A stretch of 64,000 nt of DNA, from positions 55,216-119,215 of IMG/VR virus record IMGVR_UViG_3300033070_001371; one strand, 5' to 3'. Shown here one piece after another: positions 5-63,893 of this stretch. The notes below the pieces were generated by a model. It was not told the origin of the DNA and did not search any database. It was given only the letters and a program-made list of their open reading frames with translations. Made by a program: the position numbers and the translations under genes. The DNA comes from a virus (Duplodnaviria; Caudoviricetes). Position 1 is the first letter of the stretch, and each line of letters opens with the position of its first letter.

Positions 5-2929
5 ATGATCGTGCCGACCGCGCCGGTCGCAGGCACGGTGGCGAAGGTCGACGACCAGTTTGTGTACATCAAGCCGCACGCCGAGAAGCGGAGCGCAGCG
101 GGCGACGCAGCCCTGGTCAAAGTGCCCTACTACGAAAAGTTCCCGTTTCCGTCGAAAACGTTTCTTGATCACGCCGTTGACGTGAAGGTCGGCGACAAGG
201 TCGAAGAGGGTCAGCGCCTCGCGGAATCGAACTACACGCGCGACGGCGTGCTCGCGCTCGGCAAGAACCTGCGCGTCGGCTACCTGCCGTACTACGGGTA
301 CAACTCCAACGACGCGGTCGTGATCTCCGACGCGGCGTCGAAGAAGCTGACCAGCGAACACATGTACCGCGAGGTCTTCCCGCTCGGCACGGGCATCGAG
401 CTGAACCGCGCGAAGCACCATCTCTACTACGGCGCGAAGTACCCCGCGCAGATGTACAGCAAGCTCGACGAGGGGGGCGTCATCAAGAAGGGCGCGAAGG
501 TCGACCCGAAGGACCTGCTTGTCGCGGGCCTGATGAAGCAGGCCGTGACCGGCACCGACGCGATGCTCGGACGCCTCGGCAAGTCACTCGTCAAGCCGTT
601 CAAGGACATCGCGCTCGTGTGGGACCACGGCGTGCCAGGCGAAGTCGTGGACGTGGTGCGCGCGAGCGGCCAGATCACGATCCTCGTGAAGACGCGCGAG
701 GCCATGCAGGTCGGCGACAAGCTCGCGGGCCGCTACGGCAACAAGGGCGTCGTCGCAAAGATCGTCCCGGACCACGAGATGCTGCGCGACGAGCAGGGGC
801 ACCCGCTCGACCTGCTGCTCACCTCGGCCGGCGTCGTCTCACGCATCAACCCGGCGCAGGTCATCGAGACGGCCGTGGCGAAAGTCGCGGACAAGACCGG
901 CAAGCCGATCGTTTACGACAACGCAGCGGGGCATAACGCCGTAAAGTGGGCGCGCAATCTGATGCGCGAGCACGGCGTCAAGGACAAGGAGGAGCTCTAC
1001 GACCCGGTGCTCCAGCGCAAGGTCGTGGGCGCGGACGGCAAGGGCGTGCTCGTCGGCAAGCAGTACATCTACAAGCTGTTCAAGAGCACCGACACCAACT
1101 TCGCCGGGCACGGCGTCGGGCCGTACGACCTCAACGAGCAGCCACTCAAGACCGGCGGCGACGAGAGCGCCAAGGGCCTCGGCAAAATGGAGTTCGACGC
1201 GCTGCTCGCGCACAACGCACGCAACTTCCTGCGCGAGGCCGCGACGGTGCGCGGCCAGAAGAACGACGAGTACTGGAAGGCCGTGCAGACGGGGCTACCG
1301 CTGCCGGCGCCAAAGCCGTCGTTCGCGTTCAACAAGTTCCTCGGGCTGCTCGAAGGCTCAGGCGTCAAGGTCGACAAGCGCGGCTCAAAGTTCGCGCTCC
1401 TGCCGATGACCGACAAGGACGTGCTCGCGCGCAGCGCGGGCGCGATCGAGCACGGCGCGACGGTGCGCGCGAAAGACCTCAAGCCCGAGACCGGCGGCCT
1501 GTTCGACCCGCGCAAGACCGGCGGCACGCAGGGCACACTCTTCGCGCACATCGACCTGCACGAGCCGGTGCCGAACCCAGTGTTCGAGGAGCCGGTGCGG
1601 CGCCTGCTCGGCATGACCGAGACGAAGTTCAAGGAAGCGCTCCGCGAGCACGGCGGCACTTGGTTTCGTTCGGAGCTCGCGAAGATCGACGTGCCGCGAA
1701 AGCTGCGCGAGCTGCGCGAGCAGCTCAAGAACGCCAAGGGCCCCGCGCTCAACGACGTGGTCAAGCAGATCAAGTACCTCGAAGCGCTTCAGGCCCACAA
1801 GCTCGGACCCGCCGAGGCGTACGTGATCAGCAAAGTGCCGGTCATCCCTCCGGTGTTCCGTCCAATTCAGCCCGGTGTGCGCGACCCTTCGCAGCTGATG
1901 GTCGCCGACGCGAACAAGCTCTACGGCCAATTGTTCGACTCGAACAAAACGCTGAAGACGACGGCCGTCGCATCCGACTTGGGCAAGCACCGCCAGGACC
2001 TCTACGAAAAGATGGAGGAGCTGTACGGCACGACGCTGCCGCACGATCCCAAACTCCAGCAACAGAAGGTCAAGGGGCTGCTTGCATCGGTAGCCGGTGT
2101 TGGCTCGCCGAAGGGTGGCTTCTTTCAGCGCAAGCTGATGCGCCGCACGCAGGACGTCTCGGGACGTGGCACCGCTGTGCCTGACTCAAACCTTGGGATG
2201 GACGAGGTCGGCATCCCCGAGCCGATGTTGTGGCAATCGCTCGACAAGTTGATCGTCGCGCGCCTGATCCGCACCGGTTACCCCGCGCTTCAAGCGCGCG
2301 AGATGGTGAACGCGAAGGCGCCAGCCGCGCGCGACGCAATGCTCGCCGAGGTGCGAGACCGCCCAGCGATCATCAACCGGGCGCCGACGCTGCATCGAGG
2401 CTCGATCGTCGCCGCGTACGCCAAGCCCGTACCCGGCAAGACGATCCGCGTCTCGTCGTTCACCGAGAAGGGCATGAACCTGGACTACGACGGGGACACC
2501 TTGCAAGTGCACTTCCCGATCGGCGCTGAGGCTGTCGAGGACGCCAAGAAGATGACGCTGAGTAACATGTTGCTCAGCGACCAGCAGCGGGACAAGCTGA
2601 TGGTGTTCCCGCAGCACGAGGCGATCATCGCGTTCACGCTGGCAGCGAAGCACACGACGCCGACGGGTCCTGTACGGAAGTTCAAGACCCGTGAAGACGC
2701 GCTCGCAGCGTATCGGCGCGGAGAACTGAAACTCTCCGACGCCATCGAGATCGAGAACGAAAAGCGCGCCGAAGCCGAAGCGCTTGCAGACGGCTTCGGA
2801 ATGGGCGCGGAGCTCGATGTACCGTTCTATCCCGTCGAGCCCGACGAAGCGCTATCCTACTTCCCGCCAGAGCTGCTCACGGGCGAAGGCGACGAGGACG
2901 AGGACCCCGATGTTCGACTTCTTGAATGA
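5..2929 (+). CDS. rpoB/rpoC-like: Phage multisubunit RNA polymerase: fused beta C-terminal half + beta' N-terminal half (catalytic); may be 5'-truncated by the window edge
   Basis: beta motifs GYNSNDAV, GDKLAGRYGNKGVV, SRINPAQ, GKMEFDAL; then beta' motifs FAHIDL, VPVIPPVFRP, SGRGTAVP, NRAPTLHR and catalytic NLDYDGD (cf. NADFDGD). Confidence 0.95.
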   Translation: MIVPTAPVAGTVAKVDDQFVYIKPHAEKRSAAGDAALVKVPYYEKFPFPSKTFLDHAVDVKVGDKVEEGQRLAESNYTRDGVLALGKNLRVGYLPYYGYNSNDAVVISDAASKKLTSEHMYREVFPLGTGIELNRAKHHLYYGAKYPAQMYSKLDEGGVIKKGAKVDPKDLLVAGLMKQAVTGTDAMLGRLGKSLVKPFKDIALVWDHGVPGEVVDVVRASGQITILVKTREAMQVGDKLAGRYGNKGVVAKIVPDHEMLRDEQGHPLDLLLTSAGVVSRINPAQVIETAVAKVADKTGKPIVYDNAAGHNAVKWARNLMREHGVKDKEELYDPVLQRKVVGADGKGVLVGKQYIYKLFKSTDTNFAGHGVGPYDLNEQPLKTGGDESAKGLGKMEFDALLAHNARNFLREAATVRGQKNDEYWKAVQTGLPLPAPKPSFAFNKFLGLLEGSGVKVDKRGSKFALLPMTDKDVLARSAGAIEHGATVRAKDLKPETGGLFDPRKTGGTQGTLFAHIDLHEPVPNPVFEEPVRRLLGMTETKFKEALREHGGTWFRSELAKIDVPRKLRELREQLKNAKGPALNDVVKQIKYLEALQAHKLGPAEAYVISKVPVIPPVFRPIQPGVRDPSQLMVADANKLYGQLFDSNKTLKTTAVASDLGKHRQDLYEKMEELYGTTLPHDPKLQQQKVKGLLASVAGVGSPKGGFFQRKLMRRTQDVSGRGTAVPDSNLGMDEVGIPEPMLWQSLDKLIVARLIRTGYPALQAREMVNAKAPAARDAMLAEVRDRPAIINRAPTLHRGSIVAAYAKPVPGKTIRVSSFTEKGMNLDYDGDTLQVHFPIGAEAVEDAKKMTLSNMLLSDQQRDKLMVFPQHEAIIAFTLAAKHTTPTGPVRKFKTREDALAAYRRGELKLSDAIEIENEKRAEAEALADGFGMGAELDVPFYPVEPDEALSYFPPELLTGEGDEDEDPDVRLLE

Positions 2930-3395
2930 GTTGTTGGGCGCGCACGCTTCTGGCGCGCCCCCGAAAAGTGCGCCGTCCGGCAGCGAGCACGTAGCGTGTC
3001 TCCAGGCGATCCTCGCTAAGAAGTACGCGCTGCTGCTCGCCTACGTTTCGTACGGCGATCAGCTCCGGTCGATCTGCCGGGACGGCGTGTTCGAGCACTT
3101 TCAAGAGCACATCAAGGAAGAACGCGACGCCATCTACCAACTCAACAAGAAGATCACGGCGCTCGGCGGTGATGCTGTCGTATCTCCAGGCCATGTGCCT
3201 TCCGTGCCGCTCGACCAACCTCGCGCCGTGTTCGAGGCAGTGCTGAACTTGGAGCAGGCCGTCGTCGCGCTGTGGTCCGATTTGTTCCACAAGACCCCCG
3301 ACGACGTGCCGCTCAACGCGATGGCGCAAGATGGTGCCCTCGTCGACCAGCAACACGCCGACGACATGCGGCGCTACCTTCGGAGTGAGTGCTGA
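2910..3395 (+). CDS. Ferritin/bacterioferritin-like four-helix protein
   Basis: EHFQEHIKEERDAIYQLNKKITALGG and LEQ...DQQHADD resemble ferritin-like helices; ATG 2910 overlaps the RNAP gene end. Confidence 0.7.
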   Translation: MFDFLNELLGAHASGAPPKSAPSGSEHVACLQAILAKKYALLLAYVSYGDQLRSICRDGVFEHFQEHIKEERDAIYQLNKKITALGGDAVVSPGHVPSVPLDQPRAVFEAVLNLEQAVVALWSDLFHKTPDDVPLNAMAQDGALVDQQHADDMRRYLRSEC

Positions 3396-3772
3396 TGCCG
3401 GACCTCAAGGACATCGCGCGCGGCGTAACGACCCGCCTCAAGAAGCGTCAGCGAGGTTTTCACTTCGACAAGGAGCCGGGTTTTTACGGCGTAACAAAGA
3501 GCTTCGGCGACGCCGCCAAGCAGAAACTCGCCAGCGAAGCGCGCGCTCGTGCGATCCGCAAGGTCGCGGCGAAGTACGCGCTGCTTGACGAGTCGGGCGA
3601 ACCTGTGGAAGCGCTCGCGAAGCTCTTTGCACAGAGTAACTTCGGTTACGGCGACGCGCCCGTCGCCCCGAAGCGTACCGGCGACCCCCTCTGGGGCGCG
3701 TCGATGGGTATGCCGGCGGAGCCCGGCGACCGCAATGGGCTGAGCCGCAATCTCACGTACGGAGGAGTTTGA
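3395..3772 (+). CDS. Hypothetical protein (K-x-A motifs, probable virion protein)
   Basis: TGATG-coupled ORF; QKLAS, RKVAA. Confidence 0.65.
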   Translation: MPDLKDIARGVTTRLKKRQRGFHFDKEPGFYGVTKSFGDAAKQKLASEARARAIRKVAAKYALLDESGEPVEALAKLFAQSNFGYGDAPVAPKRTGDPLWGASMGMPAEPGDRNGLSRNLTYGGV

Positions 3773-4110
3773 TGATCACGAAGGAAGCGCTCGACGCCGC
3801 GCGGTCGCGCGGTGCACAGAAGATCTTGGCTCGCTACGGCCTCGACAAGGTCAGCGGAATCATGTCGACCCTCGGCAGCGCGGCTACGCGCGCGCTCGGC
3901 GCCGGGACCAAGGCGTACCAGCACGGCGGCGGCAGCATGATGCAGAACGTCGGCAAGGGCATCGCGGCCGGAGCCAAGGGCTTCCAGCGTGCGGGCGGCG
4001 TGCCGGCGGCGGGCAAGGCGCTCGGCGTGGCCGCAGCGGGAGGGGCGGCAGCGTACGGCGCGGGACGCGCGTTCGGCGCCGGGCAGGCCGCGTCGCAGCA
4101 GCAGCAGTGA
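3769..4110 (+). CDS. Small Gly/Ala-rich protein with hydrophobic glycine-zipper-like C-terminus
   Basis: GGAG SD; ALGVAAAGGAAAYGAG. Confidence 0.65.
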   Translation: MMITKEALDAARSRGAQKILARYGLDKVSGIMSTLGSAATRALGAGTKAYQHGGGSMMQNVGKGIAAGAKGFQRAGGVPAAGKALGVAAAGGAAAYGAGRAFGAGQAASQQQQ

Positions 4111-4142
4111 CACACGGGCGCGAGGCAGCGTAACCTTTCGCC

Positions 4143-5942
4143 ATGCCCACGACGGTCGGCCAGTTCCTGATCAATGACGTGATGCCCGAGGGTTACAAGA
4201 TCTCGGGTCCGCTCACGAACAAGGCGCTACACGACCACGTCGTCGGTCTCGCCAAAGCGGACCCTCAGAAATACGTCTCGACGGTGCTCGCGCTCAAGCG
4301 GCGCGGCGACGAAATCGCGACGCTCGAAGGCATCTCGGTCGGGCTCGATGACATTGAGCCCGACTACGAGGCGCGCGACGCGATCGTGCGCCCGGCGCTC
4401 GCGAAGCTCGACAAGCTCAAGGACCCGGGAGCCCGCGAGCGCGTGATCGTCGAGACGCAGGCGCAACTGCTCGCGCACACCAAGCAGCACCCTGGTTCGA
4501 TGACCCACATGGCGCTCTCAGGAGCGCGCGGCAATCCGGCGCAGCTCATGAAGATCGTCGCCACGCCGCTCGCGACAGTGAATCCAAAGCACGGCGTGGT
4601 TCATCAGCTGATCGACCGCTCGTACTCCGAAGGCCTGACTCCAGCCCAGTACTGGTTGACAGGACCAGAGATCCGCGAGAACGAGGTCAAAGCGCGCATC
4701 TCCGTCTCGGAGCCGGGAGAGATGGCCAAGGTTCTCGTCGCCAACATGATCTCTAAGGTCGTCACGACGACCGACTGCGGGACCATGAACGGCGTAAAGA
4801 TGTCGATCGACGACGGACACGTGCTCGATCGCTTCACGCAGGCTGACCACGGCTTGCCGCGAAACACCCTCGTCACGCCGCAGCTCGTCCAGCAACTCAA
4901 AGCGCGCCACGTGGACCGTGTACTTGTGCGCTCGCCGATGACATGCGTCGCGCAACACGGGGTCTGTCAGATGTGCCAGGGTCACAACGAGAAGGGACAA
5001 CCGCACCCGATCGGCATGACTGTAGGCGTGCGTGCCGCGCAAGCGATGGCTGAACCGTTGACGCAGATGGCGCTTTCGTCGCGCCACGGCACGCTCACGG
5101 TGAAGGCCACGGACAAAGCGCCGACCGGCTTGAAGGGTGTGCGCCAGCTGTTGGAAGTTCCTGCCGCTTTCCGCCACGAAGCGGTGCTGGCGCCAGAGCA
5201 CGGCACCGTGACGAAAGTCGAGAAGGCGCCGCAAGGTGGCCACTATATCTACCTCGGCGCCAAGAAGGTCTACGCCGGGCCTGACCTGACGCTGCGCGCG
5301 AAGGCGGGAGACGTGGTCGAGCGCGGCGATGCGCTGACCGACGGCGTGCCTCACCCTGCGAAGGTCGTCGGCTACAAAGGACTTGGTGCCGGTCGTGCGT
5401 ACTTCGTAGACGCACTGCACAACTTATACAAGAATGAAGGGATCAACCTTGATCGCCGCCACTTGGAACTTCTCGCCAAGAGTGAGATCAATCACGTACG
5501 GCTACTCGACGCTGATCCCGACCACCCAGAGCTGCTCAAGGGCGACATCGTCAACTACAACGCCTTCCGCGAGGCGTACCAGAAGGGCTCCGCTCGCGTG
5601 CAGGTAGATGACGCTGTAGGGAAGCGGCTGGGGCAAGAGGTGTTGCATCACACTGTCGGTACACCCGTGACGCCTGCGCTCGCCCGCGATCTCAAAGCGC
5701 ACGGGGTTGCTGAGGTCTATGTCAACCGGTCTATGCCTCCGGTGGAATTCGTCATGAAGCCGTTCACAATGAATCCTCTGCTGGAGAAGGACTGGATGGC
5801 CCGCCTCGCGCACCGCTATCTCAAGAGCACGATTCAGGAGGCGGCACACTTCGGCGAGACCGCCGACATCCACGGAACCCACCCCGTACCGGCGTATGCT
5901 TTCGGCGCGGAACTTCACCATGGAGCCGGCGGTGCATTCTGA
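4143..5942 (+). CDS. rpoC-like: RNA polymerase beta' C-terminal subunit
   Basis: TTVGQFLIN (cf. TTVGR), SGARGN, EGLTPAQY, DCGT, VRSPMTC...GVCQMCQG zinc site, GVRAAQAMAEPLTQ trigger-loop region, GLKGVRQLLE. Confidence 0.95.
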   Translation: MPTTVGQFLINDVMPEGYKISGPLTNKALHDHVVGLAKADPQKYVSTVLALKRRGDEIATLEGISVGLDDIEPDYEARDAIVRPALAKLDKLKDPGARERVIVETQAQLLAHTKQHPGSMTHMALSGARGNPAQLMKIVATPLATVNPKHGVVHQLIDRSYSEGLTPAQYWLTGPEIRENEVKARISVSEPGEMAKVLVANMISKVVTTTDCGTMNGVKMSIDDGHVLDRFTQADHGLPRNTLVTPQLVQQLKARHVDRVLVRSPMTCVAQHGVCQMCQGHNEKGQPHPIGMTVGVRAAQAMAEPLTQMALSSRHGTLTVKATDKAPTGLKGVRQLLEVPAAFRHEAVLAPEHGTVTKVEKAPQGGHYIYLGAKKVYAGPDLTLRAKAGDVVERGDALTDGVPHPAKVVGYKGLGAGRAYFVDALHNLYKNEGINLDRRHLELLAKSEINHVRLLDADPDHPELLKGDIVNYNAFREAYQKGSARVQVDDAVGKRLGQEVLHHTVGTPVTPALARDLKAHGVAEVYVNRSMPPVEFVMKPFTMNPLLEKDWMARLAHRYLKSTIQEAAHFGETADIHGTHPVPAYAFGAELHHGAGGAF

Positions 5943-6564
5943 CTTCGCGGATCGACTGAACGCCGTAAAGACAGCGGCCCGGGCGCGCGTGCTCGGACGG
6001 TACGGGCTTAAGGACCTGTTCCGCGAGCACACCATCGCCCCGGCTGCGCCCGGTGTCACCAACAAGGCCAAAGCATTCGGCAAACACGTCGCAGAATTCG
6101 GACGCGAGGCTGTCTTCGGTAGTCCGATCACCGTCGCAAAGCAGCTCGCTGACCGCTACAAGCAAACCGGTAGCGTCGCCCGAGCGATGGGCGGCCACGC
6201 CAAAGACTTCTACCTCTCACCCGGATCGCCGACATGGCTGAAGGCCCTATCCCTCGGTATGCCCGCGATGGAGCTCGGTAACATCGCGCTGCGCGGCGAC
6301 CCAGAGACTCGCAAGGGCGACATCGCACACGCGATCTCGGGCATGGCGGCTGCGCCGTTCACGGCGCGACTCGGCCTGCTCGGCATCCCAGTCCAGGGCG
6401 CGGTACAGGGTGCCGCGCGCTACTTGGGGTCGAAGTTCGACCCGAAGCCTGCCCCAACACCCACGCCCGAAAATATCGAGCTGGACGTACCGAAACACCT
6501 GATGCGCGCGTGGAAGAGCAACTCTCCGCTCGCGCTGAGCGACGACAACCCCGCTGCGACCTAG
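5920..6564 (+). CDS. Hypothetical protein (probable virion internal protein)
   Basis: Overlaps upstream stop; VKTAA motif; hydrophobic Gly-rich segment. Confidence 0.6.
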   Translation: MEPAVHSDFADRLNAVKTAARARVLGRYGLKDLFREHTIAPAAPGVTNKAKAFGKHVAEFGREAVFGSPITVAKQLADRYKQTGSVARAMGGHAKDFYLSPGSPTWLKALSLGMPAMELGNIALRGDPETRKGDIAHAISGMAAAPFTARLGLLGIPVQGAVQGAARYLGSKFDPKPAPTPTPENIELDVPKHLMRAWKSNSPLALSDDNPAAT

Positions 6565-6595
6565 ACTACGCACTGGAGCCAAGGAGCACCCCCCA

Positions 6596-10891: not shown

Positions 10892-10900
10892 TCACTCATC

Positions 10901-34057: not shown

Positions 34058-34978
34058 ATGAGCATCGTATTGTTCGGGCAGAAAATCGAAGTTCCAGGTA
34101 CGGCATGCTTCCTGGACCCGCCCGAAGTCGTGCGCGCCGTCACGCGCGGCAAGAGCGCGCAGATTCCGCGCTCGACCGAAGGCATTCGTCGCGATCCGGC
34201 GACATTCTGGGTGCGGGGGCACGTCACGCACACGACGTCAGGAACGGTGCAGCGCCTCGACTCCAAGAGCTGGATCGAATCCGCGCGGGACTGGATGTTC
34301 GCCAAGTACAGCCTGAACGCCGATGAGAAGTCGTGGACGCTCACCAAGGACACAGACGAGTCGGCGATCCAAGTCTCAGACCCTGGCAGCCTCAGTTCGT
34401 GGCATGCTGGTCAAGTCAACGGCGTCGCGGACGGTTGGGAGTTGGCGCAGACGAGCGAAGGCACGCTCACACAGATGCAGCTCGACGGTTACGTACGCCT
34501 CTGCGACGAGTGGTCCTACCACTGCGGAATCCCTCGCGTGATCGCGTGGCGCGACGGCAAGCCTTTCGCTGGAATGCTCACACGCGCACTGAGCGCTCAC
34601 GGGGCTGGCGCGTCGCTGTGCTTATTCTACGGTCACCGAAACATCTGGTCGGTGAGCAAAACCACAGGGCAGCTGTACGCCGTACGCAGCGCGGGTGACC
34701 CCTCTGACTTGCCCTTCCTCGCGCTGAAGGCCGCCGGCTACCTCTGCCTCGATGTCGAGGCTGGCGACGACCTGAAGATGTGGAAAGACCTTCAGGTTCA
34801 ACTCGGCCTCGACCCAGACGGCATCCCAGGGCCGCAAACGCGCGCGGCGTTGATCCGAGCAGGCAAGCACGGGCCAGGGGGTATGCTGGTACCGCGCCCC
34901 GGCGACGATGCGCGAGGCCTGCCTGCGTGGCTGCGCGCCCGGCCGCTGGCATGGCGCCAGGGCGTCGGCCTCGCCTGA
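34058..34978 (+). CDS. Endolysin: N-acetylmuramoyl-L-alanine amidase + C-terminal peptidoglycan-binding motif
   Basis: HTTSG, SWHAGQVN..GWEL, YGHRN...DP Zn-amidase motifs; LQVQLGLDPDGIPGPQTRAAL PG-binding motif. Confidence 0.8.
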   Translation: MSIVLFGQKIEVPGTACFLDPPEVVRAVTRGKSAQIPRSTEGIRRDPATFWVRGHVTHTTSGTVQRLDSKSWIESARDWMFAKYSLNADEKSWTLTKDTDESAIQVSDPGSLSSWHAGQVNGVADGWELAQTSEGTLTQMQLDGYVRLCDEWSYHCGIPRVIAWRDGKPFAGMLTRALSAHGAGASLCLFYGHRNIWSVSKTTGQLYAVRSAGDPSDLPFLALKAAGYLCLDVEAGDDLKMWKDLQVQLGLDPDGIPGPQTRAALIRAGKHGPGGMLVPRPGDDARGLPAWLRARPLAWRQGVGLA

Positions 34979-35695: not shown

Positions 35696-36271
35696 TCAGC
35701 GCGCTGTCGCCTCGGCCCAGCAGGTGCGACAGAGAGGCGCGTAGGAGTCGCGCGCCCCAACGAGAACCTGCGCGTCGTTCGCGACGAGACGGTACGACAT
35801 CGAGCCGTTCTCGCTCTTGCAGTGCACGCAGATCGCCTTGAACTTCAGGATCTCGTCGGCGTGCGCGAGCAGCGTCGGCATGATGCCGAAGGGTTGGCCT
35901 CGGAAGTCGCGGTCGAGGCCCGAGGCGAAGACCGAGACCCCGCGCGCGTAAAGCAGGTGCAGCACCTCGTCGACGGCGCTGGGCGCGAAGAACTGCGCCT
36001 CGTCGAGCGCGACGAAGCGCACGTTGGGTCGCACGCGCGCGGCGAATGCCTCGCCGGGCTCGATGACAGTGACCTGGAAGGGCACGTGCAGATCAGCGAG
36101 GTCGGTGCCCGCGTGCGAGATCAGGCGCCCCTCACGGCGCGTGTCGGTCGAGGGCGAGAAGATCTGGGCGCCCACGTCGCCGTGGAACGCGAGGCGCACG
36201 CGGCGCAGCAGCTCCTCGGTCTTGCCCGAGAACATCGGACCGCAGGCCACGGTGAGCTTGCCGGCGGCCAT
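35696..36271 (-). CDS. tdk: Thymidine kinase
   Basis: GPMFSGKTEEL P-loop, LDEAQFF, SGLDRDFRGQPF, C..C and YAPLCRTC. Confidence 0.95.
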   Translation of the reverse strand: MAAGKLTVACGPMFSGKTEELLRRVRLAFHGDVGAQIFSPSTDTRREGRLISHAGTDLADLHVPFQVTVIEPGEAFAARVRPNVRFVALDEAQFFAPSAVDEVLHLLYARGVSVFASGLDRDFRGQPFGIMPTLLAHADEILKFKAICVHCKSENGSMSYRLVANDAQVLVGARDSYAPLCRTCWAEATAR

Positions 36272-37262: not shown

Positions 37263-37571
37263 CTAACCCGAATGGTGCCGGTGGCGTCGATGATGAGGGT
37301 GTGTCGACGGAGAGGACAAAACTTGTCCAAGATTGCTGTTGCTCATCAGGCCCTGGTTCGACATCGTATGTTCGGCCATCAGGCCAGGAAACGCTGCGAA
37401 CTGCCGAGCCAGAGCAGCTTGCCGCTCTTGGTCACGCACAGCGCTGTAGGAGTCGAACGCCGCCGAAAGCGCTGGGAACGCACGCTGCACAAGCTCGGGA
37501 CTCGCCGTCTTGAGGTAGAGGTCGACGACGCGGCGTGCGGCGCGGACTCGCGCGAGCTTCTCCAGATTCAC
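37263..37571 (-). CDS. Small hypothetical protein with His/Arg tail
   Basis: Coupled to upstream gene; EKLAR, LKTAS. Confidence 0.55.
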   Translation of the reverse strand: MNLEKLARVRAARRVVDLYLKTASPELVQRAFPALSAAFDSYSAVRDQERQAALARQFAAFPGLMAEHTMSNQGLMSNSNLGQVLSSPSTHPHHRRHRHHSG

Positions 37572-38350
37572 AGCGTCACGCCGCCTTCGAGGGGCGTCTG
37601 CCCAATCGAAGACTCCTCGCCGGTGGGTTGCGTCTTGGCGTCGGCACGGGCGAAGACGCGCGAAAGGCGGTCGCCGATCAACGCCTCCTCCGCCGGAGTC
37701 TGGCGTCCGGTGTTTGGCAGCGCGACGACGTGCCCCCGGATCAACTTGTCGATGTCCGCTTGTTTGAGATCACTCAGCTTGTAGCGCGCGAGCACGGTCT
37801 TGAGCGCCGCTTCTTTGCGTGCCGCCGCGACCAGCCCACGCTCAGCGGCTGCGGCGCGCTTGATGCGCGCAGCGAAGTGCGCAGCCAAACCATCGAGTCG
37901 GCGCGGCGCGTCATTGCGAGTACCCCTCTGTGCCGTCTTCACGTAGCGCTCCTTCTTCTTCGGCTCGAACTTCTCCAACGCGTCGCGCAAGTGCGTCATG
38001 TCCCGAAACACCCGGCGCGCGTGAATCTCGTCGCCGTAAAGACGATAGATCGCCTCGCGCTCGGCGTTCGAGACCCCGACGAGAAACTTCGTCTCATCGA
38101 GCTCCATGCCGCCACCGTCGCGCGGCTTGAGCTTCTGAAACACCTCGTAGTGCCCGTTCGCGTCGTCACCGACGAACGCATCGAGACCCTCACCATCTTC
38201 CCCCTTCAGGCGCGGGAAGTAGCCATAGTCGCACGGGTAAACGAAGCGCTTCTCGCCCCCGTCAGGGCGCGGCCAAACCTTCACTGTGCCTTTCGGTCGG
38301 TCGATGATGAAGGTCGTGCCCTGGAACGTCTTACGCGGTAAAGCCATCAC
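37568..38350 (-). CDS. Inorganic pyrophosphatase-like domain protein with K-x-A-rich tail
   Basis: IDRPKG...YPCDYGYFPRLKGEDGEGLDAFV...DETKF matches the family-I PPase YxxxYG/DGDxLD pattern. Confidence 0.7.
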   Translation of the reverse strand: MMALPRKTFQGTTFIIDRPKGTVKVWPRPDGGEKRFVYPCDYGYFPRLKGEDGEGLDAFVGDDANGHYEVFQKLKPRDGGGMELDETKFLVGVSNAEREAIYRLYGDEIHARRVFRDMTHLRDALEKFEPKKKERYVKTAQRGTRNDAPRRLDGLAAHFAARIKRAAAAERGLVAAARKEAALKTVLARYKLSDLKQADIDKLIRGHVVALPNTGRQTPAEEALIGDRLSRVFARADAKTQPTGEESSIGQTPLEGGVTL

Positions 38351-44350: not shown

Positions 44351-45096
44351 CTGTAGCGATCCAACACGTCCTCACGGGGTCCGGCACTGCAAACGGCTCC
44401 CCTCTCGGCTACGCCCGTCTTCTCTATAGTGTCGGAGGCGTACAGATTCGTTTCCGTGCTCGGCGGTTTGGATTGGCAGGCAATGATCTGAAAGTCGCAC
44501 TCGTTGACGTCGGAGCTGGATTGATCATCCCGTCTACGTCGGTCAAACTGCTGGCAGATGGAGTGACGACGCAAGTCATTCTGCGCCGTAATGGCGGCGG
44601 CATCACTGCGACAGCGCAAGAAGTTTGCGACGCAATCAACAACTACCTACCTCACAAACCGTTGCCTGTGCTCGCGGACATTGTTGCAGCAGGCACCCTT
44701 ACGGCAGGGCTTGCTGCAACAAACTTGACCGGAGGCCTCGACCCTCTCAGCGCCAAAGGAGGACTTTATCGTTTCGCTCCAGCTGCGAACGTCAACGGAG
44801 GCTTGTTTTTCTTCGAACAGAGCCGACCTTGGTACGTCGAAACAATCGAAGGGGCCTTCGATGGCGCAGCCACTCCTCTGAGCATCGAAGTCCGTGTGAC
44901 CAACGTCACAGAAGCCCTCGATGCGCGAAGCGGCGAAAGCGTAGTGAACTTTGCTGCGTCGCTGACAACGGCGCCTCTTCACTTCTCCTTGACAGACTTG
45001 CGTCTTCCTCTACTCCCAAATCAAGCCATCATCGTGACAGTGAACGCCGCCGGCGTTGTTCGCTGCACTGCGCGACCCTCCAGCGGCTGGAGCTGA
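44326..45096 (+). CDS. Virion structural protein (paralog of 41648-42508)
   Basis: GYARL, VDVGAG, VILRR, ATAQEVCDAIN, TGGLDP; TACACT 5 nt before ATG. Confidence 0.65.
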   Translation: MYYLENGSSVAIQHVLTGSGTANGSPLGYARLLYSVGGVQIRFRARRFGLAGNDLKVALVDVGAGLIIPSTSVKLLADGVTTQVILRRNGGGITATAQEVCDAINNYLPHKPLPVLADIVAAGTLTAGLAATNLTGGLDPLSAKGGLYRFAPAANVNGGLFFFEQSRPWYVETIEGAFDGAATPLSIEVRVTNVTEALDARSGESVVNFAASLTTAPLHFSLTDLRLPLLPNQAIIVTVNAAGVVRCTARPSSGWS

Positions 45097-46731
45097 TCAA
45101 GGGAAGTACGTCGTGTCGTTCAAGTTCCCCATCTGAACAGGCATGAGTGTCCGCAAGTAACGAACAGCCGCGTGATAGCCGCGATTTCGCGCGCGGATCA
45201 AGTACTGCATCGTACCGTTCGTTGTCGTACCGGTAATCGGCTCATTCAACAGAGCGACACCAGGGCCAGACTGCGCCGCCCCCAAGGCGCTCGTACGAAT
45301 GTACTCGTTCATCCGAACGAATTCATCTACGTAGTCTCGTTCTGCCGGCCGCGACAAATCGTTCACACCAAGAAACCAGGAAACAATACTGGTTGAGTTA
45401 TAGGCCTTGCCTGCCCCCCACCAATTATCGATCGTTGTCCCGCTAGGTGTTCTTTGCGAGTGGCCCGGAGAACCTCCGTTCGTACGCGTGACGTAGCCAC
45501 TTCGTGCAAAGTGAAACTTCCAAGCAGTTCCAGTCCCGTCGTCCACAGGCCCCACTGCTTGTCGCGTATAAGGGAAGCTCCCTGCTTGTACAACAGTGCG
45601 CATGTCGTTCACACCGAGAGTGACGCCCGTGATCCCGGCACCCGCCGGACGAGAGTCCCCGATTACGCCAACCCTCGCCAGCGGAAATGGCACTCCGAGC
45701 TCTGTGGCTACGCCTGCCTCCAAAACACGAAGCGCTTTGCCTGCGATGTCGTGATACGTCACATCCCCATGCGTGCCGTCTCCGAGGTGCGTGCTGGTGA
45801 TCGGCGTATCCACCGCAAACGGCAAAAAAGGAACTGTCGTTGCATCAACCCAAGTCGCTTCCAACTTCGCGAAGTCTGCGTCCGTCGTTGAACCCGCCAC
45901 GCAAGCCAACGCCGCATAAATGCGCGAAGAAGTGAATGTTGAAAGATCCGCCTTCCCGCCAAGCGTCAAGCCGTAATCTGAATCTCCAGCGTCGACTGTC
46001 CCTGTAGATGTCCCAGTTGCCGTGTACGTGGCTCCCGGGTCACCGGGCCAGCGCGGCGCCCGAACAAACTTTACGGCGTAACTTCGGTTCGAACGGTGGA
46101 TGAGTGAAGCGAACACCACATCACCTGGACGGGCCCAACCGGCCGGTGTCGATACGTTCAAGTGAACAACACCCGGACGGCTAGTCACGGCCCAAGACAG
46201 AGTCGCAGAAGAAGCGAGCCCCAAACTGGTGCCGTAGAGGCTCACCGCGTTCATGTTGCTAGTGCCAATTGTCCACGTACCCAAAACTTGTCCATCAGAC
46301 AACACGCTACAAAGGACCGCAATTGCGACTCCAGGCGCATGCAGCACTTTCGCCCGAGTCAACGCGCCAGCGGTCTCGTCTCTTGCGTACGAAGACGCAG
46401 CAGCATTGAACGCCAACGCCGGTTGGCCGTTGAACTCCCAGTGCCGCAAGTAGCCTTCTGGTTGGCGTGACGCCGTCGCATGCGTGTTCAAACCCCAACC
46501 ATTACTCGAACGGTCCGCGATGGAGGACAGAGGCCCTTCAAGCCTCGAACGATTGTCGTAGTAAAATAGCGTCGAAGGGATCGAGTCTGGTACCCAATCA
46601 GGTGTGCTCACGTACGGAGGAAACCGTCCCTGCTCTACCGTCAGTGTATTCCGCAAATACGAAAACGAATCCGCCAATCTGTACGCACGAGCAGAGCCAG
46701 TCGAAGACGAGAGCAGAGGAAAGCGGCGCAT
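45097..46731 (-). CDS. Tail appendage protein: lectin/LamG-like region + C-terminal SGNH-hydrolase-like domain
   Basis: VIGDS, HFARSG, LGVND blocks; TATACT 5 nt before ATG; lower GC than the core genes. Confidence 0.6.
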   Translation of the reverse strand: MRRFPLLSSSTGSARAYRLADSFSYLRNTLTVEQGRFPPYVSTPDWVPDSIPSTLFYYDNRSRLEGPLSSIADRSSNGWGLNTHATASRQPEGYLRHWEFNGQPALAFNAAASSYARDETAGALTRAKVLHAPGVAIAVLCSVLSDGQVLGTWTIGTSNMNAVSLYGTSLGLASSATLSWAVTSRPGVVHLNVSTPAGWARPGDVVFASLIHRSNRSYAVKFVRAPRWPGDPGATYTATGTSTGTVDAGDSDYGLTLGGKADLSTFTSSRIYAALACVAGSTTDADFAKLEATWVDATTVPFLPFAVDTPITSTHLGDGTHGDVTYHDIAGKALRVLEAGVATELGVPFPLARVGVIGDSRPAGAGITGVTLGVNDMRTVVQAGSFPYTRQAVGPVDDGTGTAWKFHFARSGYVTRTNGGSPGHSQRTPSGTTIDNWWGAGKAYNSTSIVSWFLGVNDLSRPAERDYVDEFVRMNEYIRTSALGAAQSGPGVALLNEPITGTTTNGTMQYLIRARNRGYHAAVRYLRTLMPVQMGNLNDTTYFP

Positions 46732-46844
46732 ACACAAGTATAGGGTTTTAGCCAAAAAAACGGGCAGCGCCCCCTCGAACACCCAAAGAAACAGCGCCGC
46801 CTAGACCCCGCGCACGGAGCTGAGGCGTGTCCAACGCTCACGCT

Positions 46845-47266: not shown

Positions 47267-47610
47267 GGTGGAAGCGCCGGGAATCGAACCCGGGTCCGCG
47301 AAGCGTTCGATCGGACGTCTACGTCACCTGTCCCGCGTGTCTCTTCTCCCTCCGAGCATCCCCACGGGCAGGGTCTCGTCTGGTTTGGTGCTGAGTGTCT
47401 CGCCTGCGTAGGCTGCACCGCCCGCGCTCGCTATCCCGGTTTGTTGACGCCCCTGCCGGAAGATCCAGGAGTACCTCCGGCGGGACGGTCACGCAGCGAG
47501 CTGCTGCGGGACGGACGCGTTGTCGTTCGCGTTTCTACGTAGACCGTGAGGTGGTCTATTCCTATGACGCAATCTCGACCTAGTTCTCCACGTCGAAGCC
47601 TTTCGCTCCC
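47267..47610 (-). ncRNA. ssrA: tmRNA; tag ANDNASVPQQLAA* at 47530-47489
   Basis: 5' GGGAGCGAAAGGCTTCGAC pairs with 3' CGCTTCC-A including a G3:U wobble; T-arm CCGGGTTCGATTCCCGG; canonical ANDN...LAA tag. Confidence 0.95.
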
Positions 47611-51563: not shown

Positions 51564-51761
51564 TCAGGCTGTAGCGGCCTTCTCGATCTTGGCGAAGACG
51601 CCCTGGAGCTTCTTCAGGGTCGCGACGTCCTCGACCTTGCTGGCCACCTGCCGGCCGAGCTTCTTGTTGTCTGCCAACGCCCAGTATGTGACCTTGTCGC
51701 CGACCTTGGAGATCGAGTAGACGTTCTTGCCGATCTTGAGTTGGATCTTGAGTTCCAGCAT
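51564..51761 (-). CDS. Small basic protein
   Basis: AGGAG SD; Lys-rich; strong codon bias. Confidence 0.6.
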   Translation of the reverse strand: MLELKIQLKIGKNVYSISKVGDKVTYWALADNKKLGRQVASKVEDVATLKKLQGVFAKIEKAATA

Positions 51762-55525: not shown

Positions 55526-55615
55526 TAGTATCCAGAGACGAAGCCATGTCCATCTCGCTCGCCACCTCGAAGAATCGCACCGCCGTGGGTTTGCCCACGG
55601 CAGCGATCCCTTCAC

Positions 55616-55687
55616 GGGGCGGTAGCTCAGTGGCAGAGCGTCGGGCCGTTAACCCGATGGTCGTGGGTTCGACTCCCTCCCGCCTCG
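55616..55687 (+). tRNA. tRNA-Asn(GTT)
   Basis: GGGGCGG/CCGCCTC acceptor, TAGCTCAG D-arm, TCGGG-CCGTTAA-CCCGA, GGTTCGACTCC; G73. Confidence 0.85.
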
Positions 55688-55752
55688 CCCAGTTCCCCGC
55701 GCAGCATCGACAGCAGTATCAGGCGCAATAGCGCTGATACTGCTTTTTGCAT

Positions 55753-55824
55753 TCCGGGGGTCGTCTAACGGCAGGACGCGAGATTCTGGCTCTCGCTGTG
55801 AGGGTTCGATTCCTTCCCCCGGAG
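55753..55824 (+). tRNA. tRNA-Gln(CTG)
   Basis: TCCGGGG/CCCCGGA acceptor (U1-A72, G73), CGAGA-TTCTGGC-TCTCG, GGTTCGATTCC. Confidence 0.85.
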
Positions 55825-55828
55825 CTAC

Positions 55829-55911
55829 GGACCAGTGCATCCGAGCGGCAAAGGGGCGTGGCTGTAAACCACGCGGCACAGCCTACGGGGGTTCGAGTCC
55901 CTCCTGGTCCA
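55829..55911 (+). tRNA. tRNA-Tyr(GTA)
   Basis: GGACCAG/CTGGTCC-A, CGTGG-CTGTAAA-CCACG, long variable arm, GGTTCGAGTCC. Confidence 0.9.
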
Positions 55912-55914
55912 TCT

Positions 55915-56364: not shown

Positions 56365-56372
56365 AGGGCATT

Positions 56373-56705: not shown

Positions 56706-56735
56706 AAGAAGCAGATGCGGGCCTCAGCCCTCTGT

Positions 56736-57575: not shown

Positions 57576-57606
57576 GAGAACAACCCTACACAGCGCACGT
57601 CAAAGC

Positions 57607-58164
57607 TCAAACCGTGATCTGCGTAGGCTGACTGACGTACGCGCTCCGCTTCTCCATCAAGATGATGTAATCCATCCCGACATTCAAATACGCAGGACGG
57701 CGCCATCGACCTTGATCGTCTGTCTGTACGACGTAAACAGGTGTAGCGAAGCGCCCTGTGTCAAAGTCCGGCTTGGTGTACACCCGCACATCTGCGTCAG
57801 GAATTCCAACGCCGCTTTCTGTGACAAAGCGAAGGTTGTCCTGTCCTCCGTAGTTGTGATCGACCGCGACCTTAGACGCCGCTGCTGCCGCAGTGGGCCC
57901 AAAAGGGGAAAAGACGTCAGTCTGCCCCACGGCGACACCCAGCCCGGTCACAGCTGTGACTTGGTACACGTCGCGCGCAGTGCCTTGCGTGTCGTCGAAG
58001 AAGAACCGCTTTCGCTCCGCCGACCAATTGGGTCCAGGCACCTCGCTGGGGACGACTGCGACCAAAGACAATGGCTGCCCGATGTCCGGTGCGCGTCGAA
58101 CTTCATAGGAGGCGACATCAGTGTCGACATCCTGTTCCCAGTACACACGAACTCCAATTGCCAT
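57607..58164 (-). CDS. Virion-associated beta-sandwich protein
   Basis: GGAGG SD; FN3-like N-terminus (W...D.DVASYEVRR); VQTDDQGRW. Confidence 0.55.
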   Translation of the reverse strand: MAIGVRVYWEQDVDTDVASYEVRRAPDIGQPLSLVAVVPSEVPGPNWSAERKRFFFDDTQGTARDVYQVTAVTGLGVAVGQTDVFSPFGPTAAAAASKVAVDHNYGGQDNLRFVTESGVGIPDADVRVYTKPDFDTGRFATPVYVVQTDDQGRWRRPAYLNVGMDYIILMEKRSAYVSQPTQITV

Positions 58165-60452: not shown

Positions 60453-60455
60453 AGG

Positions 60456-61586
60456 TCACCCCCAGGCAACGGTGACCGATCCGTCGAAGGTCGCAGCAGT
60501 CGCAGCCGGAAAGAAGGCCAAAAAAGAAAGGCAAGCGCCATCGTAGACCCGATAAAGGCCGACGAGCTGCTGCACCAAGTCAACCAACGTCGTAACGCCA
60601 GCGACTTGGATAGGAATGGTCGCCAACGGGGCACCCAAAACGAACGCCATCGTGCCCGTGTTCGCTGCTGACGTCGTGTAGTTTGCGATCAGCCGAACGC
60701 CGCCGTCTCCAGCCGCAAGCGGCATGTACGGACCTTGCGTGAGCGTCGCACCTGTGACGCTCGGAGACACGATGCGCGCGCCAAGCGTCGTAGTAGGTGC
60801 CGCAGCGCTCACGATGATTGCGTTGAACGCCGCAACAGGCATCGACTGAAGAGTCGCTCCAGCCTGATCTGTGTACTGCAACTGTGTGAAGTTTGACGCC
60901 GTCGCACCAAACACAGTTTGACACGTCGTCATGATCTTCAGCCCTGGCTGTCCTGCGCTGATGTAGCGCAGAGCAGGGAGGGTGTTGGTCATGTTTTGAT
61001 TGACGCCGGCGTTAAATGCACACGCCTCGTACGTCACCACTCTGTCATACAAAATCAGCGTCGGAGTACCTGCTGTGGAGCGCGCATCCATCGACACCAT
61101 GTGCTTGGTGTCAGGAGTCTGATTTCCTGCGTGGTACAGCGCGCCCGACGTCGTGTCATCAAACTGCCGCGCTGTCGCTGCTGATCCCGTATACGCTCCG
61201 GCTGCTGGCGACCCGCCCACTGGCCAAAGATCGTACCAGTTGTTGGCGACCGGAGCCGTCGTTGCACCCTTCGAGAACTTCGCCGAAAAGAACTTTCCGT
61301 TCTGCGTGATCTCTGAAATGATGTCGTCGTACGAGACGAAACCGGCCCACTTCTGATACTGCTCCAAGCTCAAGTCGAGCGGGCGGAACAGCACATCATC
61401 CGGGAACAGATCCGGGCGCGCAGCACATGCCCACCAAGGAGGCGCGAAAGTAGCGCCCACTACGCGCCGCCCGTGCATGACGGGCAGCAATCGGTCGATC
61501 CCTCGAACAGCTTCGATCGCCGCCACTTGGGTAGCAGTGATCGCTGAGGGGTTCATGCGGGACTTCTGCGTCGTCAGGATGTTCAT
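60456..61586 (-). CDS. Virion structural protein
   Basis: Thr/Ala/Gly-rich beta protein; TLILYDRV, PLAAGDGGVR. Confidence 0.6.
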   Translation of the reverse strand: MNILTTQKSRMNPSAITATQVAAIEAVRGIDRLLPVMHGRRVVGATFAPPWWACAARPDLFPDDVLFRPLDLSLEQYQKWAGFVSYDDIISEITQNGKFFSAKFSKGATTAPVANNWYDLWPVGGSPAAGAYTGSAATARQFDDTTSGALYHAGNQTPDTKHMVSMDARSTAGTPTLILYDRVVTYEACAFNAGVNQNMTNTLPALRYISAGQPGLKIMTTCQTVFGATASNFTQLQYTDQAGATLQSMPVAAFNAIIVSAAAPTTTLGARIVSPSVTGATLTQGPYMPLAAGDGGVRLIANYTTSAANTGTMAFVLGAPLATIPIQVAGVTTLVDLVQQLVGLYRVYDGACLSFLAFFPAATAATFDGSVTVAWG

Positions 61587-61975
61587 CGGTCCAAGCTCTC
61601 GAAAGTGTACTCGAAAGCGTACTGCCCGAGAACAGCATCCATGGTGAGCGCCGAGCTCCAAACCTCACGGGTTCCGTCCTCCCAACAGAGAACAACGAAA
61701 CCATCGGGCCATTGGGCCAAAGCGCCTTTGACCTCTTGCGACACAGTCTCCCGAACGAGGAAGCGCGGCACGCGTCCCGCTGTGTCGGGCTCGACGCTCC
61801 ACTGATCTCCGTAGGATGCGTGCAGCCCCTCGTTCAGATCGAGGGTGTCGTACATCTCGACAACGCCGTCCAGCCACCAGACGACGGTGCATCGAGTAAA
61901 ACAAACGCCGTAGCCGGCGCTACGTCCAGGCGTGCCCCCCTTGTGCAGCAATTGAAACACGCTTGGCGGCGCCAT
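61583..61975 (-). CDS. Hypothetical protein
   Basis: ATGA-coupled to next gene. Confidence 0.55.
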   Translation of the reverse strand: MAPPSVFQLLHKGGTPGRSAGYGVCFTRCTVVWWLDGVVEMYDTLDLNEGLHASYGDQWSVEPDTAGRVPRFLVRETVSQEVKGALAQWPDGFVVLCWEDGTREVWSSALTMDAVLGQYAFEYTFESLDR

Positions 61976-61978
61976 GAC

Positions 61979-62533
61979 TCAGCCCAGCGTGATGGTGAAC
62001 GTGAGCGAAAGCGTGTCGCCGTTGATCAGCGAGCGCTGCGTGAAGCCGAGGACGTGGTTCATCGTACCGGCTGCCGCCGCCGTGAACAACGCCGCCTTCT
62101 GAGCGCTCTGCGCGCCTGTCGCCGTAAAGACCTTCGCGATCGTCGTGGTGTTGGTTCCAGCCGTGTGCGAGTAGGTGCCTTGCGCCCGCCCGAGGCCGTT
62201 CAACGTGATCTCATTGGAGAGGACCGTTGAGGTGGCGGTCTCCGTAACAGCGTCGTTGGAGAGCGCGATGTAGTTCAGGCCGTTCGTTCCAAGGCCGGCA
62301 GTGCCGTACCCCTGGAGGTGCAAGTAGTCCCGGCCCGCGTTGGTGATGAGGTTCCAGACGCGCTCGACTTCCCCAACATCTTCCATCACGTAGATGGCGC
62401 CTTTACGGCGTACACGTTGATGCTTGATGTCGAGAGACGCTCGCCCCACGGGGAAGAGCTCGTTGAGAGTGTTGCGCATCGCGGCGCCGATAGCGAGCGC
62501 TGCACGGCTTCGAACGTTTTCGATCAAACGCAT
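61979..62533 (-). CDS. Tail fibre/collar-type structural protein
   Basis: AGGAG SD; NLITNAGRDY...YIALSND...LSNE...GLGR...GDTLSLTFTI. Confidence 0.7.
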   Translation of the reverse strand: MRLIENVRSRAALAIGAAMRNTLNELFPVGRASLDIKHQRVRRKGAIYVMEDVGEVERVWNLITNAGRDYLHLQGYGTAGLGTNGLNYIALSNDAVTETATSTVLSNEITLNGLGRAQGTYSHTAGTNTTTIAKVFTATGAQSAQKAALFTAAAAGTMNHVLGFTQRSLINGDTLSLTFTITLG

Positions 62534-62622
62534 GGGGCTTCTCCTGCTGGAGCAATATAAGCACAAGTAGATCGGAGCCAGCCAAAAGAAACACCAAGGG
62601 CCCGAAGGCCTCCGGGCGCATC

Positions 62623-62952
62623 TCACAGAAAGGGCGTTCGGACGACGCGAGATGCAATTCTCACGACGCGACTAACAGTTCGGACGACGCACACTGCGTC
62701 TTCACACGTAGGATCTTCGTATATGCGTCCAAAGGCGAGTCGTCCTGTAGGCGACAGAACTTGACCCCAGGCCGGCCTCACGTAGCTGATGCCGAGCTCC
62801 GCAAGGATCTGTGAGACCTGGGAGGCTTCGCACTCGCCGTAGCGCCGCCACATCGTGCCCTCTGAAAGCCCTAGCTCCGCGAGTTTGGCTTGAAACTTAC
62901 GAAGTCGCGCGCCGTACCACTGACCTTCTGTCAGCGTGACTACGACGAACAT
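62623..62952 (-). CDS. Hypothetical protein
   Basis: AGAGG SD; overlaps upstream gene. Confidence 0.5.
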   Translation of the reverse strand: MFVVVTLTEGQWYGARLRKFQAKLAELGLSEGTMWRRYGECEASQVSQILAELGISYVRPAWGQVLSPTGRLAFGRIYEDPTCEDAVCVVRTVSRVVRIASRVVRTPFL

Positions 62953-63221
62953 GGGCCTCTAAACAGGGGTTGAAGCACCGTCTCGTACCGCTTGAGCGCG
63001 TCTACGGCCGTATCGACGTCCCGCGCGTAGATTCGGATCGGGAACAGCCCTCCCTCGACCTCGATAGCGATCGGAGTCTCTCGGTCGAGCAGGTCGACGT
63101 ACGCCTCACAGCGCAGCCTGCCAACCCGCGTTACGAGCACATCCGTGCGCACCACAGGCCGCTTGTGCGCTATGGCCTTGAGCGCAGAGCAGAGCGCGGC
63201 GAATCGCGCATCTGACTTCAT
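62940..63221 (-). CDS. Hypothetical protein
   Basis: ATGA coupling. Confidence 0.55.
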   Translation of the reverse strand: MKSDARFAALCSALKAIAHKRPVVRTDVLVTRVGRLRCEAYVDLLDRETPIAIEVEGGLFPIRIYARDVDTAVDALKRYETVLQPLFRGPCSS

Positions 63222-63508
63222 GTTGACACCGCGCTATCGAGCAGGCAGTGCAATTGGTTCGCGTTGTACGCCACGTCTATGTGACTCTCGACTTTGAGCG
63301 CGTACTTTCCCGCCCGATCTACGTGATAGAGCAGCGGGGCGTGCGCTGTGCTCTTCTCCGCGTGGCAGAGATAGGCTCTGCGCACGTTGCGGACGATGTC
63401 ATTGAGGCCGACAGCCTTATCACGGAAGCTGCGCTGGAGCGCTGTCTCCAGCGTGGTGATGAGCTTGTAGTAGCGAGCGAGAGCGCTCATCCGGTCAGTG
63501 CTTTTCAC
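63218..63508 (-). CDS. Hypothetical protein
   Basis: AAGGAG SD before GTG 63508. Confidence 0.5.
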   Translation of the reverse strand: MKSTDRMSALARYYKLITTLETALQRSFRDKAVGLNDIVRNVRRAYLCHAEKSTAHAPLLYHVDRAGKYALKVESHIDVAYNANQLHCLLDSAVST

Positions 63509-63581
63509 GGTCAGTCTCCTTGGAGGACCACGACATGTGGCTCCAAGTACTTGTACCGGGTTGTGAGCACTGTTTACGCCG

Positions 63582-63893
63582 TTAAGTAACCCTTTTGAGC
63601 TCGCCCTCTTCAAGTTCACGCCGAGCCTCCACAGGCTCTTTCGCTGCGCGCAAACGCGCCCGGCGAGACGGTTCCACGTGACGCGCATCCGCGTCGTCGA
63701 GCGTGACTGTGACCTCATCGCCGACGCCCGCGATGGCGACCGCTGTCTCTGTGTAAATCACGTCGACATGGATTCCTCCGCCGACACGCACGAGCTCGCC
63801 GTCGCCCTCGGTGTGCACGCGCGGATAGCCTCGCTTGCTGTCGATCTCGGCGCGAATCGCTTCAGCGTCCGCGCGCGTGATGGTGCGCTTCAT
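63582..63893 (-). CDS. Hypothetical protein
   Basis: GAGGT SD before ATG 63893. Confidence 0.55.
   Translation of the reverse strand: MKRTITRADAEAIRAEIDSKRGYPRVHTEGDGELVRVGGGIHVDVIYTETAVAIAGVGDEVTVTLDDADARHVEPSRRARLRAAKEPVEARRELEEGELKRVT

Follow-up and report, generated by a model that had tools for sequence, protein, structure and literature searches.

An evenly spaced lattice of a clade-specific DNA word in a family of RNA-polymerase-encoding myoviruses, with an orphan ParB-family protein as its candidate reader

The 64,000-nucleotide stretch of viral DNA analyzed here (the window: bases 55216-119215 of the 119,215-bp virus contig IMGVR_UViG_3300033070_001371, hereafter G000) carries, from one end to the other, copies of a 13-bp dyad word. 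These copies are real sites that are selected at the DNA level, evenly spaced, found family-wide among related phages and clade-specific in sequence. With respect to their function, the balance of probability tilts slightly, by analogy with known systems, towards their being loading sites for an orphan ParB-family clamp encoded by the phage, spaced so as to cover the whole chromosome, with the clamp coating the genome copies during replication. The contig, estimated to be 69% complete, represents a myovirus-like phage that encodes a multisubunit RNA polymerase of its own (identified with PHROGs), and its gene content includes DNA polymerase A, helicases, two sigma factors and a terminase.

An iterated position weight matrix (PWM) finds 74 copies of the word on the contig, 42 of them in the window, where they extend over 933..63585 in both orientations. 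The word, TGTACGCCGTAAA(G), is a lopsided dyad with a strict arm, GTAAA(G), and a relaxed one; its information content is graded and amounts to ~19 bits, and the PWM scores are bimodally distributed, with only a few sites expected from a Markov-3 background. The original prediction, made from the letters of the window alone, had described a 13-bp palindrome in which one arm is usually perfect. The dyad with its single perfect arm stands, since exactly one GTAAA arm is perfect in 65 of the 74 sites, but the palindrome was idealized: no site has both arms perfect, where 14 would be expected from the arm frequencies (P about 1e-7, a value partly inflated by ascertainment). None of the 41 coordinates given at that time is more than 3 bp from a PWM site, and the exact 9-mer counted 19 times in the window is indeed there 19 times; a single copy, on the minus strand at 34674..34686, had been overlooked. 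The 13-mers of the window start at 933, 3483, 4786, 5957, 8562, 9954, 11154, 13148, 14015, 15668, 17668, 20446, 22466, 24334, 26527, 28285, 31130, 31907, 33765, 34674, 34992, 36614, 38028, 38330, 39819, 40674, 42112, 43187, 44292, 46070, 47841, 50647, 52031, 52456, 54245, 55931, 57196, 57725, 60160, 62116, 62402 and 63573. The first of them (933..945, plus strand) lies within an RNA polymerase beta/beta' gene, where it encodes the peptide NAVK, and the word is also present there in the close relatives L037-L041 and L050; the highest-scoring copy (5957..5969, plus strand) is directly downstream of the gene for a 599-amino-acid (aa) RNA polymerase chain and occupies the same place in several relatives.

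Over the entire contig there is a site every ~1.6 kb, with gaps of 286-3399 bp whose coefficient of variation (CV) is 0.44, compared with 0.99 for random placement; not one of 100,000 random placements was as even, and none fell below 0.63. In the window the gaps are 286-2845 bp (CV 0.45), and no simulation among 20,000, with a median maximum gap of 6.3 kb, had a maximum as small as that observed, in agreement with the non-Poisson spacing proposed at the outset. Short and long gaps are both rarer than random, and the evenness survives a null that keeps the coding/intergenic split (null CV 1.02, minimum 0.71). Moreover, for 91% of the bases the nearest site is no more than 1 kb away (72% for random placement) and for no base is it farther than 1.7 kb, while the score of a site rises with its isolation (rho 0.24 for 917 pooled sites and 0.16-0.21 at stricter thresholds; p<=6e-6 at three thresholds). 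Density is flat along six complete genomes, with neither a cluster at one centromere nor a site-free zone, and a search for helical phasing of the gaps found none. The target of selection looks like coverage by distance and not the control of single genes.

Selection at the DNA level, as originally proposed, is evident from the coding sequences. There are 56 coding sites in G000, compared with 7.7+/-2.6 (maximum 14) in 100 within-gene synonymous-codon shuffles and 2.3 after codon shuffling, and 33 of the 218 GTA codons fall in sites that span only 0.5% of the codons, which bears out the rare-codon use reported earlier. In relatives with the same word, the A/T-ending synonymous codons are retained inside sites (25/27 in G001, 39/43 in G002, 17/30 in G006 and 20/24 in G010, compared with 10%, 52%, 11% and 19% elsewhere in the respective genomes). 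In genomes with a different word they are either not preferentially retained (G007, G009, G003 and G005) or weakly so (G008; 3/16, P 0.04); G007, G009, G003 and G008 are the closer of these. The site positions themselves turn over with distance, the fraction of alignable sites in common falling from 22/25 with G001 to 16/47 with G006 and 2/43 with G007. Lost sites are no nearer to another site than random positions are, and a one-for-one local replacement is thus unsupported. If a bias in codons or peptides had produced the whole pattern incidentally, this would be in keeping with the concentration of most coding sites in three preferred frame/orientation classes, but the synonymous shuffles, with at most 14 sites, and the conservation of the rare codons in relatives refute it; sites occur in all six frame classes, 17-18 of them lie outside coding sequence and the spacing is non-random, so we give this explanation practically no credence. 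On shuffles, spacing and codon conservation, the three points at which the original prediction could have failed, the data side with it.

In de novo searches of whole relative genomes, 19 members of this RNA-polymerase-encoding myovirus family, G000 included, prove to have an even lattice, with a CV of 0.29-0.63 in all except G002 (0.78). The word exists in about seven clade-specific versions, which track the phage tree: that of G000, in seven genomes of 49-68% GC; GTACG-N-CGTAC types in G007, G008 and G009; TTCAC-N3-GTGAA in five genomes, where the sites are true palindromes; TTCC-N3-G(G/T)AAA in G021; AACC-N-GGTTA in G013; TAC-N3-GTAAA, every 5.4 kb, in G005; and the even-length TACGCGCGTA in G015. 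A motif search of the 20 kb available for G023 found no lattice. The use of one word across 49-68% GC suits a phage-encoded reader. It also weighs, together with the way in which the seven or so words follow the phage tree, against a host protein as reader, be it a Bdellovibrio-type LexA or a MatP-, SlmA- or Noc-like chromosome organizer whose sites the phage mimics. The LexA box that the original prediction had named, TTAC-N3-GTAA, is a genuine published element of Bdellovibrio promoters (PMC8565304) and fits 26/114 sites in G006 and 13/34 in G005, but it fits only 5/74 in G000 and none in G007 and G003, the word changes with the phage clade, and most of the phage sites are inside genes. Nor are there any matS-type or KorB-operator matches, and we regard a host reader as decidedly improbable.

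Two other repeats came to light. The k-mer counts of G010 are dominated by many GCCGTAGCC repeats, probably a tandem low-complexity coding repeat, and a promoter-like GGTATAAG word, distinct from the lattice, occurs upstream in G003, G005, G006, G009 and the Salmonella phage Arash; it did not surface in G000.

The candidate reader is the product (350 aa) of an orphan ParB-family gene on the minus strand (G000:45723-46775; L003:7726-8775), which is outside the window, 8.4 kb upstream of it, and sits among replication genes. Judging from the sequence comparisons, it is quite probable that this protein reads the sites. Its assignment to the ParB family rests on sequence and predicted fold. Pfam ParB_N and HTH_ParB both match, though each alone is below its curated cut-off (HTH_ParB E 0.0017), and a nine-sequence family profile matches Noc (6e-29), ParB, Spo0J and KorB in an alignment that covers the Spo0J/Noc boxes. 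The GxxR and ENxxR motifs are present, with G113, R116, E148, N149 and R152 invariant in nine homologues. The fold of the structural model (predicted local distance difference test, pLDDT, 78.6) matches KorB (Z 15.2; 8qa9, rmsd 3.3 A over 202 residues), Noc (15.0) and ParB (14.9) equally well, and its helix-turn-helix (HTH) domain matches the DNA-binding domains of Noc (Z 10.6) and KorB (Z 8.3); for the HTH domain of the same-word G006, KorB is the top, if weak, PDB match (E 0.004). Two copies of the protein are predicted to pair via the C-terminal residues 279-339 (score 0.59 compared with 0.04 for the best control; contacts agreeing by at least 70% between runs, pLDDT at least 77), a mark that is reached by 20/30 solved dimers and 1/23 single chains and that a likeness to the solved ParB dimers may help to pass. 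The N-terminus is polar, rich in Thr, Glu and Lys, variable and of low confidence (pLDDT ~33 over residues 1-20), and by inspection has no amphipathic membrane helix.

None of the complete family members searched lacks the gene. It is present in 17 of the 19 genomes with a lattice, the remaining two being fragments, and absent from both Arash and Vibrio phage D181. A six-residue insert in the DNA-binding domain is exclusive to the ParBs of the G000-word clade, and G015, whose word is of even length like parS, has the most Spo0J-like motif in this domain (an alignment judged by eye). Where the word changes, the ParB branches are long (0.70 and 0.74) compared with those of the polymerase (0.055 and 0.095). 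Contigs of a ~90%-identical relative span the gene in two wastewater RNA runs, although contigs cannot show transcription. In most relatives, as in G000 (44893-46775), the ParB gene lies tail to tail with a sigma-70-type gene, and the short divergent spacer upstream of the latter carries its own repeated GCTAGTCAC element.

The original prediction had listed parS- or matS-like partition among its possibilities. The kinship with parS and the presence of a ParB-family gene favour part of this idea, but we found no ParA: AAA_31 and CbiA gave no match in the complete genomes searched (positive controls 14/14), and no ParA-binding motif of the LG[KR]GL type is present in 19 ParBs. The more general proposal, a dimeric binder with a structural role that depends on distance, fares better, the sites not being tied to single genes, whereas its stoperator and true-partition variants are unsupported. 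As for the binders then put forward, neither seems apt: the small basic protein (65 aa, window 51564-51761) is found in only 2/9 relatives, and the FmdB zinc-ribbon protein is missing from the lattice-bearing G015.

How, then, might such a protein act on such sites? From the biochemistry of KorB, Noc and ParB, whose clamp cycle is our model (PMC7333895, PMC11790492, PMC4331003), a dimer would bind the dyad through its HTH domain, take up a nucleotide, probably cytidine triphosphate (CTP), close and slide away, leaving the site free for the next clamp. On busy phage DNA, polymerases would cut this sliding short, and a site every ~1.6 kb would keep all of the DNA in reach; the clamps would then coat the replicating genome copies so as to compact, separate, position or shield them. 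We infer the coating of the whole genome because there is no motor partner to be found and no centromere. KorB exerts its effect over distances of 45 to >1000 bp (PMC11790492) and Noc is abundant enough for 1-2 kb per site (PMC4331003), both of which match the lattice spacing. One might speculate that the lopsided word keeps affinity moderate, so that the sites do not block polymerases; the TTCAC clades, it should be said, use true palindromes.

Several observations pull against this clamp-loading account. The arginine equivalent to R82 of B. subtilis is replaced in the G000-word clade, and the nucleotide used by an orphan ParB is not predictable from sequence (bioRxiv 10.1101/2025.10.10.680097); KorB itself does not condense DNA in vitro (PMC11790492). 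The ParB tree agrees with the RNA polymerase tree (the one marker tree, built by a quick method), so that common descent by itself could explain why word and protein vary together, and an unbiased screen of between-word divergence, in which the taxon sets differed, ranks ParB 5th of 65 core genes, which is no more than suggestive. G014 (L153-L156) has the ParB gene, yet no lattice was found in its 64 kb and it retains 0/12 alignable sites of its sister G013; in the low-GC G004, which retains 10/16 alignable G005 sites, the sites are enriched but irregular in the scan. That the ParB-less Arash and Vibrio D181 yielded no dispersed dyad in 91 and 50 kb, respectively, speaks for the account, but these are distant controls whose motifs were read only in part. 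Finally, 17 of the 74 sites are intergenic, an over-representation relative to the 8% of non-coding DNA, although our purpose-made simple gene caller missed some small genes and a few of these sites may be coding. The two genomes with the weakest or no detectable lattice despite an intact ParB, G014 and G004, are both of low GC, perhaps a case of decay after a shift in base composition.

Some of these points could instead favour a different phage protein as reader, such as a virion or packaging protein that guides stepwise packing or entry of the DNA, or a site-specific nicking enzyme. Many core genes are unannotated, four core genes exceed ParB in between-word divergence, and G014 breaks the link between ParB and lattice. 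Against this, the two sigma factors are the only other core genes to match a family of sequence-specific DNA-binding proteins, G005, G013 and G015 lack an XRE-type HTH gene, the sites are found in both orientations, and the structural core is common to Arash, which lacks the lattice. We consider such a reader rather unlikely.

The over-representation between genes leads to another possibility, in which the reader is the same ParB but its job is that of KorB: the clamp would slide to promoters, be stopped there by a partner protein and switch phage genes on or off at a distance. The range of KorB, 45 to >1000 bp, fits the reach of the lattice (PMC11790492), intergenic sites are 2-4-fold enriched in six genomes, most of them no more than 150 bp upstream of a gene start, the ParB gene and a sigma-factor gene face each other in most genomes, and the phage has an RNA polymerase of its own. 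Three quarters of the sites, however, lie well inside genes, spread uniformly along them and facing either way; their density is equal in the long structural operons, which have few promoters; and the evenness persists when the coding/intergenic split is preserved, as described above. Lower constraint alone could account for the intergenic excess, and no KorA-like partner surfaced in Pfam scans of the G000 proteins, a KorA profile search not having been run. Gene control of this sort seems unlikely, if less so than a different reader, and coating of the whole genome is the likelier of the two, although they are not mutually exclusive.

Methylation sites, such as the GATC of Dam, can also be evenly spread. 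Nevertheless, methylation marks are hard to reconcile with ~19 bits of graded information, and no methylase of the N6/N4, C5 or D12 class, the three families searched, is present in five complete genomes. The related suggestion of the original prediction, a stoperator-like block of transcription, has a precedent in the dispersed repressor sites of the Cluster A phages (PMC4351075), but finds no support, as the G000 sites do not follow the direction of transcription (26 sense, 31 antisense; position within genes uniform) and no tyrosine integrase was found in the five complete genomes (serine integrases were not searched). We hold either idea to be very improbable.

Considered as a whole, the arrangement works like KorB/OB or Noc/NBS (Noc and its binding sites), but to judge from the sequences it fails defining tests of each of these systems and of ParABS. 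KorB of the IncP-1 plasmid RK2 has the same ParB-family clamp architecture and dispersed sites that act at a distance (PMC11790492, PMC13768133). Its operator, OB = TTTAGC(G/C)GCTAAA (PMC13768133), likewise spans 13 bp around a single central base and has TTTA/TAAA as its ends, as does the symmetric form of the phage word. However, the phage word has CG in place of GC as inner bases and one relaxed arm, OB has no match in five genomes, and the phage sites are even, every 1.6 kb, in what is a phage with no integrase found rather than a plasmid, and with no ParA/IncC found. Noc of Bacillus, the best profile match of the family (E 6e-29), is an orphan ParB paralogue whose palindromic sites, about 70 in number, are dispersed (PMC4331003), and it resembles the phage system in these many sites and in the lack of a ParA partner found in the phage. 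The phage protein, unlike Noc, is without an N-terminal amphipathic helix and has a different word, and its ~70 sites lie within 119 kb instead of a bacterial chromosome, with no site-free zone. Chromosomal and plasmid ParABS systems share the three-domain ParB, the GxxR and ENxxR motifs and a palindromic loading site (PMC7333895), but in the phage there is neither a ParA nor a ParA-binding motif to be found and the sites tile the whole genome, not one centromere. VirB of Shigella and BisD of ICEclc are transcription activators that exemplify ParB-type clamps outside partition on mobile DNA (PMC13768133); promoter activation is not evidenced in the phage, and no genome-wide even lattice is described for these proteins in that review.

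Among phages, the nearest printed case is that of the unevenly spaced dyads of the Cluster O mycobacteriophages. Corndog has a 17-bp dyad with a 3-bp centre in 34 dispersed copies, without parAB or an integrase, and its authors named the ParB-like gp90 as one of three candidate binders (PMC4351075). We find that gp90 matches the hidden Markov model of our phage ParB family (E 8e-25), so that an unrelated virus likewise pairs dispersed dyads with a ParB-like protein. In Corndog, however, the arms are invariant, many of the copies lie between genes or close to where a gene starts, and the spacing is uneven (CV 1.07, P 0.78). The dyad screen of Corndog (L188-L189) also returned further enriched spaced words in ~32-38 copies, which may be flanks of the 17-bp dyad or a second repeat. 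A literature search, outside of which most subscription papers fell, found no description of a phage ParB with an evenly spaced lattice of sites.

As to the phages themselves, the G000 phage is found in runs from wastewater, river and sludge. The closest isolates, Vibrio phage D181 and Salmonella phage Arash, are distant, with 29-32% identity in the 599-aa polymerase subunit. The two multisubunit RNA polymerase genes of the window (5..5942, plus strand), identified by PHROGs and by relatives, served as family marker; they encode a 1514-aa chain (5-2929) and the separate 599-aa chain (4143-5942), with three small genes in between, one of them ferritin-like (2910-3395, E 4e-12), and Arash has a comparable two-gene split. 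A tmRNA with an unusual tag peptide and tRNAs for Asn, Gln and Tyr lie at 47267-47610 and 55615-55911 of the window; no similar tmRNA was found among phage records. The sole genome match with a bearing on the host, at 57% identity, is a 2.4-kb contig in an Enhydrobacter metagenome-assembled genome, and Enhydrobacter was not accepted as host. There are also a thymidine kinase-like gene (35696-36271; a family match, with the gene assigned from a motif) and a gene with an inorganic pyrophosphatase domain (37568-38347). The close relatives L004 and L005 have 71% and 50% GC, respectively, over the same stretch (see also G001 and G002); the major capsid proteins of L004/L005, G001 and G002 are 96-99% identical to that of the window, and the word and many site positions are common to them despite the GC gap.

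We put forward tentatively, and as something that may well prove otherwise, a broader proposal: that a large lytic phage family has turned ParB into a viral chromosome organizer, with a loading lattice maintained by selection and a shell-less phage nucleoid that would compact, separate or shield the replicating genome; that on at least six occasions the site has been rewritten in concert with the DNA-binding domain; and that other phages, including the culturable Corndog, have looser forms of the system. If this is true, ParB clamps would gain a new job, the covering of a whole viral genome instead of the marking of a centromere, and a phage would be bending dozens of its unrelated proteins to hold binding sites at an even spacing. 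It would also offer an answer to the question left by the dyad repeats of Cluster O, and the seven or so natural pairs of protein and word would be a test bed for the evolution of ParB specificity and could supply orthogonal ParB/site pairs with which to label DNA.

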